From a phage: DNA of 64,000 nt. Under the pieces are notes generated by a model. That model did no database searches. It was not told the DNA's origin and worked only from the letters and a program-made list of their open reading frames with translations. The translations under genes and the position numbers were made by a program. Shown one piece after another: positions 1 to 10,569 of the stretch. Every line of letters starts with the position of its first letter. Position 1 is the stretch's first letter. The stretch lies in the sequence record PX393109.1, one strand, 5' to 3'.

Positions 1-1164
1 GTTGGTGATGATCGGGAGCGGGTTCGTGAGGCTAATGCTGCTCTTCCGGAATATGAAGATCGTGAGAAGTATGCGATGTTCTACTCTAACACTATCCCAG
101 TTCAGGATAGCACGAAGCGCCTCGCAGTGGTAATGATTAAGATCCGCCGTATGTCAGAGCACGAGTCATCAGAGTTAGGTCTTCTGAGTCTTATCCAGGC
201 ATTGGTAGCTAATCATGCTGATATGAAAGCCTATATCGAAGAGTGCGAAGATCCTACAGTAATCAATAGTGGTTATACAGAGTTCAGCGACTTCTATAAC
301 ACTACGGTGCTGGTGAATCCTCCTAGCTATCGTGATGTTGGCATCAGCAATGGGGTAATGTCGTATCATCCGACTAACTTACTCTACCTGCGAATCCTGC
401 GCCATGCTATCCGTATCAGAAGTATTCGCGATACTGCCGAGGCCAGCGAAGCGTTGTTATCTCTGATTCCTCGTGAATCTATTGTAATGCAGAAGATGGT
501 TAACGGACTAATCCTGGAGGGCACTAAGGACTATCGAGGTAACTTAATTAAGCCGATGATCAATAATCTTAAAGGTAAGGGTGGTCGAATCCGTGGTAAC
601 CTGTTAGGTAAGCGCGTTGATTACTCCGGTCGTTCTGTAGTTACTTCGGCTCCGCATCTTCCGCTGGATACTCTTGGTGTACCGTTCAAGATGATGTACG
701 AATTACTTCAGCCAGACATCCTGGGTGAGCTGGAGAACTTATATGGTGGCCCGACTAACGAAGGGTACAACATGTACGACATCAGCAATAAAGTCCAGCG
801 TATGTACAAGAATAAGTCCCGAGTAGCTCTGGAAGTATGCTGGAGACTGTGTGAGAATGCCACGGTGTTCATGAACCGTGCACCATCCCTACACCGTTAC
901 TCAGTATGGGGATTTAAGGTCAGACCTCACATGGGTAAGGAGATTCAGGTTCCTCCGATGGCTATGGGTGGTCAGAACATGGACGTGGATGGTGATACCG
1001 CAGCAATTCACCGTGTACTGACTGATCGTGCTTGCTGGGAAGTACGTAGCCTGATGATGGTTAACCAGAACATCAACAGCTCTATTGACTTCGATAGTCC
1101 GGTCGTGAAGCCGTCCCACGAAATGGTGGTAGGTCTGTTCCAGGCAACTACGGTGGATATGTAA
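1..1164 (+). CDS. Multisubunit RNA polymerase beta'-like protein, N-terminal-half homolog (5' end outside window)
   Basis: Frame is open from base 1. Motifs [33 protein letters not shown] and MDVDGDTAA match bacterial beta' ([41 protein letters not shown]). Protein stops shortly after the catalytic loop, i.e. a split beta'. Confidence 0.75.
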   Translation, partial: [387 protein letters not shown]

Positions 1165-1694
1165 TGAAGAAACATGCTATCGGTGAGAAAGATGTTGGTA
1201 GAGTTATCCACTTCGAGGGTACTCCCGAACGCGGTCTGGACCCTGCGGGCTATATAACAATCTTCTCAGATGCATCGTACTGTCATAAGAGTAAGGCTGC
1301 TGGTTTCGGAGGATGGATTCGTCTTCCTGGTGAGCAGCGAGCTCATATAACTCGCGGAGGATTTACTGCTGTAGATAATAACTGGGCAGAGCTAGAAGGG
1401 ATCATGAAGACCCTATGGTTTGCCATGACTAAGACAGCATTCGATGGTGTTAGGGTAGTCGTCCAATGCGATTGCGAATGGGCATTAAAGGAATTCATAG
1501 ATAAGCATATGGAAATGCTTCGCGATCTTAACCCTAAGTCCATTAAGGTTAAGCATGTCAAAGGTCATCAGAAGTTCAATAATCCTCGCTACAAAGTAAA
1601 TAATCTCTGTGATGAGATAGCTAAGCAGGAAATGGTTAAGTATAGAAATAAACTTAAAGGATACACAGATGCTGGGATTTTTAGTGGTGCATAA
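1164..1694 (+). CDS. RNase HI-like ribonuclease
   Basis: IFSDAS, NNWAELEG, QCDCEW and KGH..N..CDEIA align with RNase HI catalytic D/E/D/D positions; start overlaps upstream stop. Confidence 0.7.
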   Translation: MKKHAIGEKDVGRVIHFEGTPERGLDPAGYITIFSDASYCHKSKAAGFGGWIRLPGEQRAHITRGGFTAVDNNWAELEGIMKTLWFAMTKTAFDGVRVVVQCDCEWALKEFIDKHMEMLRDLNPKSIKVKHVKGHQKFNNPRYKVNNLCDEIAKQEMVKYRNKLKGYTDAGIFSGA

Positions 1695-1968
1695 GGAGCA
1701 CGGTGCTCTCTGTGGAGTAAACGAGTTTTACACCTCATGGACCGGTCTCGGCTGTAATCCAGATACCACCGCAGCATTCTTCGAGACTTATGAAGAGGCT
1801 GGATTAATATCTGAACTGTTGCAAGATCCAAACGTATCAGTATTCGGACCAATCTATCAAGACTCTGAAGTAACTGATAAGATTCCTGTAAGTATTGTGG
1901 AATCGTTGGGTATCAAATGCTCCTACTATAGGCAGGAGCCCGAAAATAAACTACCATGGCCATGGTGA
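1669..1968 (+). CDS. hypothetical protein
   Basis: ORF in the + gene array; true start uncertain because it overlaps the upstream gene end. Confidence 0.4.
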   Translation: MLGFLVVHKEHGALCGVNEFYTSWTGLGCNPDTTAAFFETYEEAGLISELLQDPNVSVFGPIYQDSEVTDKIPVSIVESLGIKCSYYRQEPENKLPWPW

Positions 1969-8563: not shown

Positions 8564-8599
8564 CCGCTCTTTTAGGGTGCTAAAAGGCTGTTAAAGTGT
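8564..8599 (+). promoter_or_regulatory. Conserved motif A copy (candidate phage promoter)
   Basis: ccgctcttttagggtgctaaaaggctgttaaagtgt; SD and ATG (8626) follow within 27 bp. Confidence 0.5.
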
Positions 8600-8625
8600 C
8601 AATCCAACCGTAAGGAATAACAAAG

Positions 8626-10569
8626 ATGGAAAAAGTCGCTGCTCTGATAGAGCAAATTAAGAATGCGGCTAATGCATATTATAATGGTGACCAGCCCATT
8701 ATTACGGACGAAGAGTTCGATGCTCTTACCGAGAAATTAGCTGAGCTGGATCCTACTAACCCACTCCTCACTACCCCAGGCTGGGGAGTAACCGAAGCTG
8801 CTGAACATCTGGCTAAGTGCCCACATGGTTCATTCGTGGGTGGTCTTGACCAGGTTAAGATCGGTGCTGTGGAAGAGGGATTTAACTTCCTCCATGGTCA
8901 CGAAGAAGTTAAGGGATTCGTCGCTTCGGCTAAACTGGACGGCATCTCGGTAGTTCTGTATTACGACTACGACGGTAACTTCGTCCGTGGCTTAACTCGT
9001 CACGACGGCGTCACTGGTCTGGACATCACGAAGAGTCTGGAGTGTGCCGAGTTTCCTCGCCAGGTTCCTAAAGGTATTAAAGAAGTCCGCTGCGAAATCG
9101 TTATTCCCGATGATAAGTTCGAGCGGATCAGCCACGAGTACAGTAACCAGCGTAATGCTGCTTCTGGTATTGCTCTGGCTAAATACAGTGATCCTGCATT
9201 AATGGAACTGCTGGATGTGGTTGCATATTCGGTAACTGCATTCTACGAGGATGTGGATCACGAGACATGGATGGATGACTACAACCAGCTGCTACTATGT
9301 TTAAGTAAGGCTGGGTTCAAAGTAGTTAAGTACTTCGTTCTTCCTGCTGGTTATGTCAATACTTGGCTAGTGGCTAACCCACCATCTAAGTTCCGCGAAG
9401 ATCCGGTCTGCAACTACCTGTTGGATGGCGTAGTTCTGGGATCTCTGAATGTTGACTGGGATGAGAATATGCTGGGCAAGAATACTGTCCACTATAAGAT
9501 CAAGTACCAATCAGCATTCTATGACACTACCGTGGTTAAGGTACACTGGGTAGTTAGTGGTTACGGCCGAGTCGTGCCTACTGTTGAGTTCGAGACGGTA
9601 GACATGAGTGGAGTTAATGTAACTTATGCATCCGGATGGAATGCTGAGTACATCAAGAGTGCTGGTATCGGACCTGGTGCTAAGATCAAGATCAGTCGCC
9701 GTAACGAGGTAATTCCTCATATCGAAGAAGTCGTGGAACCCGTCACTGCGGTAATTCCTGAATTCGTCGATGGGGTACGTACTTTCTGGGATGGCGTGCA
9801 TATTCGCATCAAGACTAAGTTAGACCCGATGGTTATTCGTACGATAATCCGTGACTTCGCTCCTAAGGGTCTCGGTGGGACGAATATCAACAAGTTTGCC
9901 GAGCAGGCTAAACTAGATGATGTTGCCATGTTGAACGATATCATCGAGACTGGTCCATCTCATCCAGTATTCAGTATGGTAGAGATGTACGATGGCCCTC
10001 TCCAGCTTACTCGTCAGTCCTTCTTCAATATGAAGGATCGTCCTATCTCTATGGACCACATGCTGACCTGTACCTGGACGGATGGCCTTGGTTATGCAAC
10101 AGGAGTGCGTATTGCCACTGCGGTGACTCGCGACCAGATGATTCGTGTATTGCGTAACAATAGCTTCCACGACATGGTTAATGACGGTATCCAGGTCAAT
10201 ACCGAGGACTACAAAATCTGTAAGGCAATCTATGATGCATGCATGGGTTCCGTAGCTAAGAAGATTGTAGAGAATCAGGAAGTAATCCTGAAGGTGCTGA
10301 ATCTTCCTCTGAACTGGGTGGCCTCTAAGGTAGAGGAACCGCTTCCGGAAGGAAAGTTCAAGATCTGCTTAACTGGTAAGCTTAGTAAGCCTCGTAGCGA
10401 ACTGGTTAACTCCTGGATCAAATATGGCGTAGTCGAAGTCGGTATCGGCGACGCAGAATATCTGGTATGCGATAAACCAAGTCAGTCCAGTAAGTTTAAG
10501 GCTGCCGAAGCTAAGGGTACCAAGATCGTTACCGAAGATCAATTCCGTAAAATCATTGGAGCTGAATAA
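8626..10569 (+). CDS. ligA: NAD-dependent DNA ligase
   Basis: N-terminal YYNGDQPIITDEEFDAL, KLDG adenylation motif, TRHDGVTGLDIT, and a C-terminal BRCT-like segment. Confidence 0.85.
   Translation: MEKVAALIEQIKNAANAYYNGDQPIITDEEFDALTEKLAELDPTNPLLTTPGWGVTEAAEHLAKCPHGSFVGGLDQVKIGAVEEGFNFLHGHEEVKGFVASAKLDGISVVLYYDYDGNFVRGLTRHDGVTGLDITKSLECAEFPRQVPKGIKEVRCEIVIPDDKFERISHEYSNQRNAASGIALAKYSDPALMELLDVVAYSVTAFYEDVDHETWMDDYNQLLLCLSKAGFKVVKYFVLPAGYVNTWLVANPPSKFREDPVCNYLLDGVVLGSLNVDWDENMLGKNTVHYKIKYQSAFYDTTVVKVHWVVSGYGRVVPTVEFETVDMSGVNVTYASGWNAEYIKSAGIGPGAKIKISRRNEVIPHIEEVVEPVTAVIPEFVDGVRTFWDGVHIRIKTKLDPMVIRTIIRDFAPKGLGGTNINKFAEQAKLDDVAMLNDIIETGPSHPVFSMVEMYDGPLQLTRQSFFNMKDRPISMDHMLTCTWTDGLGYATGVRIATAVTRDQMIRVLRNNSFHDMVNDGIQVNTEDYKICKAIYDACMGSVAKKIVENQEVILKVLNLPLNWVASKVEEPLPEGKFKICLTGKLSKPRSELVNSWIKYGVVEVGIGDAEYLVCDKPSQSSKFKAAEAKGTKIVTEDQFRKIIGAE

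Follow-up and report, generated by a model that had tools for sequence, protein, structure and literature searches.

We analysed a 64,000-nucleotide stretch of phage DNA (sequence record PX393109.1; hereafter, the window), focusing on two adjacent genes, one encoding a DNA polymerase of family X (Pol X) and the other an NAD-dependent DNA ligase of the LigA type. A previous sequence-only reading had grouped these two genes with those for an RNase HI-like protein and a DEDD exonuclease in a compact DNA repair set. All four open reading frames (ORFs) are present on the plus strand, and Pol X does lie directly upstream of the ligase, with 64 nt between them. Over the 4 kb that cover the pair (7000-11000), the window shares 96.5% identity with Escherichia phage vB_EcoM_IME392 (116 kb; hereafter, IME392) and 94% with phage EP_H11, and the GenBank labels of the two central genes in IME392 are 'putative DNA-directed DNA polymerase family X' and 'putative DNA ligase'. 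The features at the locus are:

7803..8561, plus strand: compact family X DNA polymerase of 252 amino acids (aa), with an 8-kDa (lyase-like) HhH domain, palm and thumb (Pfam, alignment)
8626..10569, plus strand: NAD-dependent DNA ligase (LigA type) of 647 aa, with domain Ia, adenylation domain (K103-LDG), OB fold, divergent middle region and weak BRCT domain
7059..7079, plus strand: terminator-like hairpin 5′ of the putative Pol X-ligase unit (9-bp stem, five GC pairs, T run; consensus match only)
7266..7637, plus strand: 123-aa ORF (orf123), opening the putative transcription unit that contains Pol X (ORF list)
7639..7806, plus strand: small hydrophobic ORF of 55 aa (orf55), its stop overlapping the Pol X start (ATGA)
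10569..10823, plus strand: acyl-carrier-protein (ACP)-like ORF with a DSL motif (Pfam PP-binding, E = 1.5e-8; PHROG 5934)
11160..11179, plus strand: terminator-like hairpin 3′ of the putative Pol X-ligase unit (8-bp stem, five GC pairs, T run; consensus match only)

By its sequence, the window Pol X is a genuine family X polymerase with an intact active site and the contacts for a templated dNTP. Pfam matches to HHH_8 (48 bits) and DNA_pol_B_thumb (73.6 bits) were recovered, the closest solved relative by sequence was the Thermus thermophilus PolX (3au2; E = 1.6e-21), and the fold, with its Pol β-type palm and thumb, matched Pol β and the PolX of African swine fever virus (ASFV) and not other nucleotidyltransferases. 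In a MAFFT alignment with human Pol β (reference verified as identical to PDB 1bpx) and T. thermophilus PolX, with both of which the window protein shares its catalytic residues and its 8-kDa HhH domain, the catalytic aspartates D190, D192 and D256 of Pol β are all present as D135, D137 and D178. The triphosphate-binding motif hG[GS]xRRG is likewise intact (G124-S125-V-R127-R128-G), and the residues through which helix N of the Pol β thumb contacts the nascent base pair, N279 and R283, are kept as N201 and R205. Because the three aspartates, the GSxRRG motif and N201/R205 are present, the doubts attached to the original assignment (missing aspartates, or a match to a non-polymerase nucleotidyltransferase) fall away. 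The polymerase had also been called uncommon in phages, which agrees with our searches: tblastn found matches in 9 of 50,697 phage records, no PHROG family matched the protein, and 13 viral structures in BFVD matched the Pol X model at E ≤ 0.001.

The ligase is equally recognizable, with domain Ia, the KxDG adenylation lysine (K103) and an OB fold all present. Three Pfam matches exceeded their cutoffs (PF22745, Nlig-Ia, 31.1 bits; PF01653, adenylation, 68.1 bits; PF03120, OB, 49.7 bits), PHROG 3869 ('NAD-dependent DNA ligase') aligned over the full length (E = 4e-87), and Escherichia coli LigA (2owo) was matched at E = 4e-16. In domain Ia, Y18, D28 and D32 correspond to Y22, D32 and D36 of E. 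coli LigA, with H23 replaced by Tyr and Y35 by Phe. The region after the OB fold is divergent: residues 372-440 contain no Cys cluster and no tetracysteine zinc finger, no Pfam HhH or zinc-binding-domain match was found in the protein, and the BRCT signal (16.8-18.9 bits) is below the Pfam cutoff.

Pol X and LigA look like members of one putative transcription unit, bracketed by the hairpins at 7059 and 11160. Within it, orf123 and orf55 are separated by 1 nt, the Pol X start overlaps the upstream stop codon and the ACP-like ORF begins in the ligase stop (TAATG). The mechanically called Pol X ORF opens at a TTG (7788), and the ATG at 7803 that forms the overlap is the start in the IME392 GenBank annotation. 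No Pfam or PHROG match was found for orf123 and no Pfam family for orf55. A sigma-70 promoter scan was not used because its matches were near background (11 against 6.4 ± 2.2 in shuffled sequence, thus not clearly above it) and because these phages encode their own RNA polymerase.

The same direct succession of Pol X and NAD ligase occurs in three divergent lineages, namely the window and the loci that we designate L006 and L015. In L006, Pol X and the ligase are 40% and 47% identical to those of the window, and the small upstream ORF is kept as well, a counterpart of orf55 (42% identity) standing immediately 5′ of Pol X. In L015 (a contig of GCA_958327115.1), the identities are ~33% for Pol X and 27% for the ligase, and the gene order over 8001-15181 is Pol X, NAD ligase, two small ORFs and then the DNA polymerase PolA (~0.9 kb downstream).

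Architecture of the short Pol X form

Compared with the core of Pol β and bacterial PolX enzymes, the window Pol X lacks the HhH2 fingers/D subdomain (~60 residues, Pol β ~88-148, missing from the alignment) and has no PHP domain, so that the protein does not comprise the four-subdomain core. Searching 1.84 billion representative proteins with a profile recovered 9,358 Pol X homologues. Canonical PolX proteins match the profile as two stretches split by the fingers/D insertion, whereas ~35 of the best 150 of these homologues are short (234-273 aa) and match in one unbroken stretch. At least 41 retrieved sequences have the short-form architecture, and the 172 sequences that were aligned include 41 short and 120 canonical forms. 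The catalytic residues are conserved in this set, with D135 and D137 invariant in 38 of 38 short forms and D178 invariant in the clade closest to the window protein.

The 8-kDa domain differs from that of Pol β at the positions on which lyase chemistry depends. The position of the deoxyribose phosphate (dRP)-lyase nucleophile (Pol β K72) is occupied by Glu64, which is invariant in the closest clade of eight sequences (25-59% identical to the window Pol X); at this position, Glu is found in 13 and Lys in 21 of the 41 short forms, compared with Glu in 3 of the 120 canonical ones. The lysines of the 5′-phosphate pocket (K35, K60 and K68 of Pol β) are replaced by H27, T52 and G60. Because an invariant Glu stands where the canonical dRP-lyase lysine would be, Pol β-style short-patch lyase chemistry is not supported, and indeed appears contradicted, by the predicted protein. 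A further difference concerns the steric gate, where the Pol β pair Y271/F272 reads H193/S194; His is found at this position in 24 of the 41 short forms and in ASFV PolX (H115; ASFV sequence verified), a minimal Pol X of 174 aa that, like the window protein, has no D subdomain. The alignment also revealed no Loop1-like insertion and a palm that is shorter than in Pol β.

Two database proteins carry the short-form module fused to other domains, namely ankyrin repeats (P0069; 1055 aa) and an NT5C-type 5′-deoxynucleotidase (P0125; 406 aa). A Rosetta-stone search revealed no fusion of short-form Pol X to a ligase, and a scan of IMG/VR for Pol X relatives returned two loci, both uninformative. Outside the phages, a parallel to the gene pair is PgVPolX of Phaeocystis globosa virus (PMC5537341), in which gap filling and sealing are likewise joined by combining a Pol X and an NAD-dependent ligase. 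However, PgVPolX is a single polypeptide of 1093 aa with a full Pol β-like core and demonstrated dRP/AP (apurinic/apyrimidinic)-lyase activity, whereas the window phage has two separate genes and the lyase nucleophile is missing.

Phage group and the published uracil-repair system

The window comprises the early/replication region and the tail module of an E. coli myophage resembling IME392. Pfam and PHROG scans place early, replication and nucleotide-metabolism genes on the plus strand to ~28 kb (an RNA polymerase β′ fragment, RNase HI, an Acb1-like phosphoesterase, Pol X, LigA, the ACP-like protein, glycosyltransferases, a NADAR protein, the DEDD exonuclease, a dUTPase and a dCTP deaminase), followed from 28.5 kb on by a tail, baseplate and tailspike module on the minus strand. 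Two of these genes concern the supply of modified thymidine precursors:

25513..25983, plus strand: dUTPase (Pfam dUTPase, E = 1.9e-35)
26269..26892, plus strand: dCTP deaminase (Pfam DCD, E = 9.5e-24)

The dCTP deaminase is the first step of the pathway to the 5-hydroxymethyl-2′-deoxyuridine (5-hmdU) precursor (the IME392 enzyme appears in Table 1 of PMC12686479), and the dUTPase would supply dUMP and limit dUTP, a context in which uracil repair would matter. IME392 also encodes a thymidylate-synthase homologue, a 5-hmdU DNA kinase (PF18723, E = 3e-35) and a YfbR-like nucleotidase (Pfam), so that Pol X and the ligase co-occur in one genome with the dCTP deaminase, dUTPase and thymidylate-synthase-homologue pathway. 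Because these and related genes are encoded, we place the phage in the SP15/YerA41-like group, in which thymidine is replaced by a 5-hmdU-derived hypermodified base, and the thymine of the window phage is probably heavily modified; the same placement is made in PMC12686479. The kinase gene itself lies outside the window (IME392 locus L008, 16141-17112, minus strand) and is a clear match, whereas a 2025 preprint (bioRxiv 10.1101/2025.03.26.645540) describes 5HMUDK as undetectable in the SP15-like group.

That preprint also describes the repair system to which the gene pair is best compared. According to the preprint, PolA enzymes of SP15-like phages bear an active N-terminal uracil-DNA glycosylase (UDG) domain with conserved UDG motifs, Pol X and the ligase are found in all SP15-like genomes except phiLo, no SP15-like genome has a dedicated AP endonuclease, and EP_H11 and EcoM_IME392 are discussed as members. 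In the assays reported there for phage YerA41, PolA excises deoxyuridine, Pol X cleaves at a tetrahydrofuran site leaving a 3′-OH, fills gaps and co-elutes with PolA, and the ligase, preincubated with NAD+, seals. The Pol X genes of YerA41 and Carin-5 had already been noted in earlier papers. The pairing of Pol X and ligase in this phage group is therefore already known rather than new, because it is annotated in IME392 and a repair role has been published for the related YerA41 (bioRxiv 10.1101/2025.03.26.645540), and in this respect the window confirms an existing annotation.

Proposed role of the pair and competing explanations

Phages that replace thymine by the dUMP route must keep uracil out of their DNA, and host repair is unreliable on hypermodified DNA; a Pol X and a ligase that are phage-encoded and coupled to the replicative polymerase meet this requirement, and they have parallels in the repair systems found in ASFV, poxviruses and giant viruses. 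Because the pathway that replaces dTTP passes through dUTP and dUMP, some uracil would be expected in the phage DNA. Under the published model, the UDG domain on the replicative PolA would remove uracil ahead of the fork and PolA would bypass the abasic site, after which Pol X would process and fill the lesion and the phage NAD-dependent ligase would seal the nick. By homology to the YerA41 system, with which the IME392-type phage shares its phage group, the trio of gene families, thymidine hypermodification and the lack of a dedicated AP endonuclease gene (for YerA41, bioRxiv 10.1101/2025.03.26.645540), we consider it probable that Pol X and LigA of the window phage act in such replication-coupled uracil repair. 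Removal of the 5′ sugar-phosphate by a Pol β-type Schiff-base lyase is probably not part of this route, because the lyase lysines of Pol β are absent from the predicted protein; hydrolytic incision (as reported for YerA41 Pol X), long-patch repair with the phage FEN-type 5′-3′ exonuclease or host enzymes could act instead. The base-excision and gap-filling function suggested at the outset thus stands in part: its Pol X-ligase core has been demonstrated biochemically for the YerA41 pair, whereas short-patch repair in the manner of ASFV or Pol β does not fit a protein with Glu64, no pocket lysines and no fingers/D subdomain.

A number of observations weigh against this uracil-repair role. The glycosylase of the published model is a UDG domain fused to PolA (bioRxiv 10.1101/2025.03.26.645540), which is encoded outside the window. 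No UDG domain was found in the IME392 PolA with Pfam (to E ≤ 5) or with phmmer against the PDB, its N-terminal 200 aa had no match among 5.8 billion proteins, and its resemblance to UDG motifs A and B is by eye only (residues 13-38 and ~131-137). The PolA of L015 aligns to that of IME392 only from ~residue 180, so that the UDG-like N terminus is apparently absent there even though the Pol X-ligase pair is kept. The YerA41 Pol X used in the assays (298 aa) is only distantly related, being 37% identical to the window Pol X over the palm and thumb only, and its nearest relatives after Carin-5 are canonical forms of ~300 aa rather than the window clade. Adjacency of the two genes is not universal, with Pol X and the ligase 14.5 kb apart in Acinetobacter phage Ab1-TPeters and encoded by genes 158 and 127, respectively, in YerA41 (from the preprint). 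Finally, AP-endonuclease activity of a PHP-less Pol X comes from that one preprint, the available part of which mentions no active-site-mutant control. As a separate observation, a 195-aa ORF upstream of the L015 PolA was considered as a detached UDG-like gene and rejected, having no similarity to the PolA N-terminal domain.

The distance between the two polymerases bears on how much of the YerA41 biochemistry can be carried over. YerA41 Pol X and Carin-5 Pol X (289 aa) keep the middle subdomain that the window protein lacks, and the K72 position is Ile in YerA41 and Leu in Carin-5 but Glu in the window. Because the short form is a distant relative with a different architecture, the AP-endonuclease activity and PolA binding of the YerA41 enzyme are not simply transferable to it, and templated gap filling is demonstrated only for the YerA41 homologue (bioRxiv 10.1101/2025.03.26.645540). 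The Pol X of the E. coli phages thus differs in architecture from the assayed form, with no D subdomain and no lyase lysine. IME392 and EP_H11, as E. coli-infecting members of the group, are phages in which the uracil-repair model is genetically approachable.

A rival explanation is a broader function in finishing replication and recombination. On hypermodified DNA, which would be a poor substrate for host Pol I and LigA, the phage Pol X and LigA might finish lagging-strand and recombination intermediates; their partners would be RNase HI, the FEN-type exonuclease and an Mre11/Rad50-like nuclease, and they would have no dedication to uracil. Full-length homologues of the window ligase occur throughout the clade (RP13, SP-15 and Ab1-TPeters) and 203 phage records contain NAD ligases, a spread that would suit a replication gene. 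RNase HI is encoded in the window, and scans of IME392 revealed a FEN-type 5′-3′ exonuclease, helicases, an Mre11/Rad50-like protein, RusA and a weak Toprim-like Pfam match (a candidate primase), whereas no 5′-3′ exonuclease domain was detected in the phage PolA. The missing lyase lysines and the L015 arrangement, in which the pair sits beside a PolA seemingly without the UDG-like N terminus, also favour such a function. However, PolA could itself fill gaps of this kind, the gene to which RNase H is coupled encodes an RNA polymerase fragment and not Pol X, and the distribution of Pol X is reported to follow that of the SP15-like PolA group, with none in ligase-bearing SPO1-like phages (bioRxiv 10.1101/2025.03.26.645540). 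On this balance we regard general finishing as rather unlikely.

Two further explanations fare less well. The phage might encode a self-contained, ASFV-like short-patch base-excision set, with its own glycosylase or AP endonuclease, a Pol X with dRP/AP-lyase activity, a ligase, and RNase HI and the DEDD exonuclease as accessories; this is improbable. The window does contain the polymerase-ligase core of such a set, but K72 is replaced by Glu, K35, K60 and K68 have no lysine counterparts, and neither RNase H nor the exonuclease shows a specific link to Pol X. The earlier reading had advised looking for an AP endonuclease or glycosylase partner; no such family was found with Pfam or PHROG in the window or in the annotated coding sequences of the remaining 52 kb of IME392 (~50 proteins; ORFs below ~150 aa and a few unannotated stretches were only partly covered). 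ASFV itself differs, having an ATP-dependent ligase and a dedicated AP endonuclease. It is more improbable still that Pol X acts as a non-templated or end-processing transferase resembling TdT or Pol μ, or incorporates ribonucleotides at DNA ends, for example together with Mre11/Rad50. The change of the steric-gate pair Y271/F272 to H193/S194 would be in keeping with this, as changes at the steric-gate position relax sugar selection in Pol μ and TdT, and so would the missing fingers/D subdomain, which grips the primer duplex. Yet N201 and R205 preserve the residues N279 and R283 that contact the template and minor groove, the protein has neither a Loop1-like insertion nor a palm as long as that of Pol β, and ASFV PolX, which shares both the His and the loss of the D subdomain, is a templated gap filler (reference 51 of bioRxiv 10.1101/2025.03.26.645540).

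Beyond the uracil-repair role, two features may be new: a short form of Pol X whose lyase position carries an invariant Glu, and the recurrent Pol X-ligase cassette. We tentatively suggest, while thinking it doubtful on present sequence comparisons, that the short form could represent a distinct uncharacterised class between Pol β and the minimal ASFV PolX; in the clade of the window phage, the Glu-bearing 8-kDa domain may have been repurposed (for example, as a PolA docking module or part of a hydrolytic AP-incision site), and the Pol X-NAD ligase pair would be a two-gene repair cassette independent of the PolA-fused UDG. Such independence is suggested because L015 keeps the pair beside a PolA apparently without that domain.

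RNase HI, the DEDD exonuclease and other neighbouring genes

The two remaining members of the proposed repair set are encoded at some distance from the pair:

1164..1694, plus strand: RNase HI-like protein of 176 aa (Pfam RNase_H, 35.1 bits, cutoff 25.8; PHROG 531 'Rnase H', E = 6.5e-18)
23847..24560, plus strand: Rv2179c-like DEDD 3′-5′ exonuclease (Pfam PF16473, E = 1e-18)

The RNase HI assignment is sound, with D36, E76, D103, H135 and D150 corresponding to D10, E48, D70, H124 and D134 of E. coli RNase HI (verified reference) and no basic protrusion in the window protein. Its start overlaps the stop (TAATG) of an RNA polymerase β′ fragment gene (76-1164, plus strand), to which it is translationally coupled, and the same start/stop overlap after a β′ gene is found in L006 (RNase H 41% identical), whereas Ab1-TPeters has no RNase H at that position. 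RNase HI is separated from Pol X by 6 kb and more than 12 small ORFs, and a homologue of the DEDD exonuclease (28% identity) occupies the same relative position in Ab1-TPeters. No specific link of either gene to Pol X was seen, and their membership in a repair set is not shown. Although the phage is only ~116 kb in size, it has a multisubunit-type RNA polymerase β′ gene, which is in fragments (in the window, 76-1164, plus strand, and in L006 and L015).

Downstream of the ligase, the ACP-like ORF probably belongs to base-modification chemistry and not to repair; L015 also has an ACP gene, 2 kb before Pol X. In the window, the next gene after the ACP-like ORF encodes 88 aa (10845-11111), and beyond it the plus-strand stretch 10569-13977 encodes a DUF7217 protein (E = 2e-77), two MptE/sialyltransferase-like proteins and a GT1 glycosyltransferase; these genes probably provide the sugar branch of thymidine hypermodification.

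Several other genes were also noticed. The product of 1956-2480 (plus strand), an Acb1-like/2H-phosphoesterase (Pfam Acb1, 28.5 bits, cutoff 27; PHROG 755 'RNA ligase'), is a candidate anti-CBASS cyclic-nucleotide nuclease. On either side of the DEDD exonuclease gene are genes for a NADAR domain protein (22483-23142, plus strand; E = 8e-27) and a DUF4326 protein (24523-24873, plus strand; E = 2.5e-17), which may reverse ADP-ribosylation of DNA as a counter-defence, and a small RyR-domain protein (25136-25516, plus strand; E = 6e-13) is encoded directly 5′ of the dUTPase gene. Outside the window, IME392 carries a full-length BCCT betaine/carnitine/choline transporter (L008, 19978-21360, minus strand; E = 1e-92) amid replication and modification genes, an unusual cargo for a lytic phage. 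In the minus-strand tail module of the window, three tailspike/depolymerase-like genes stand in a row (34340-41549), one matching the 'colanic acid degradation' family PHROG 6117 (E = 8e-177) and another the tailspike family PHROG 1171 (E = 8e-288).

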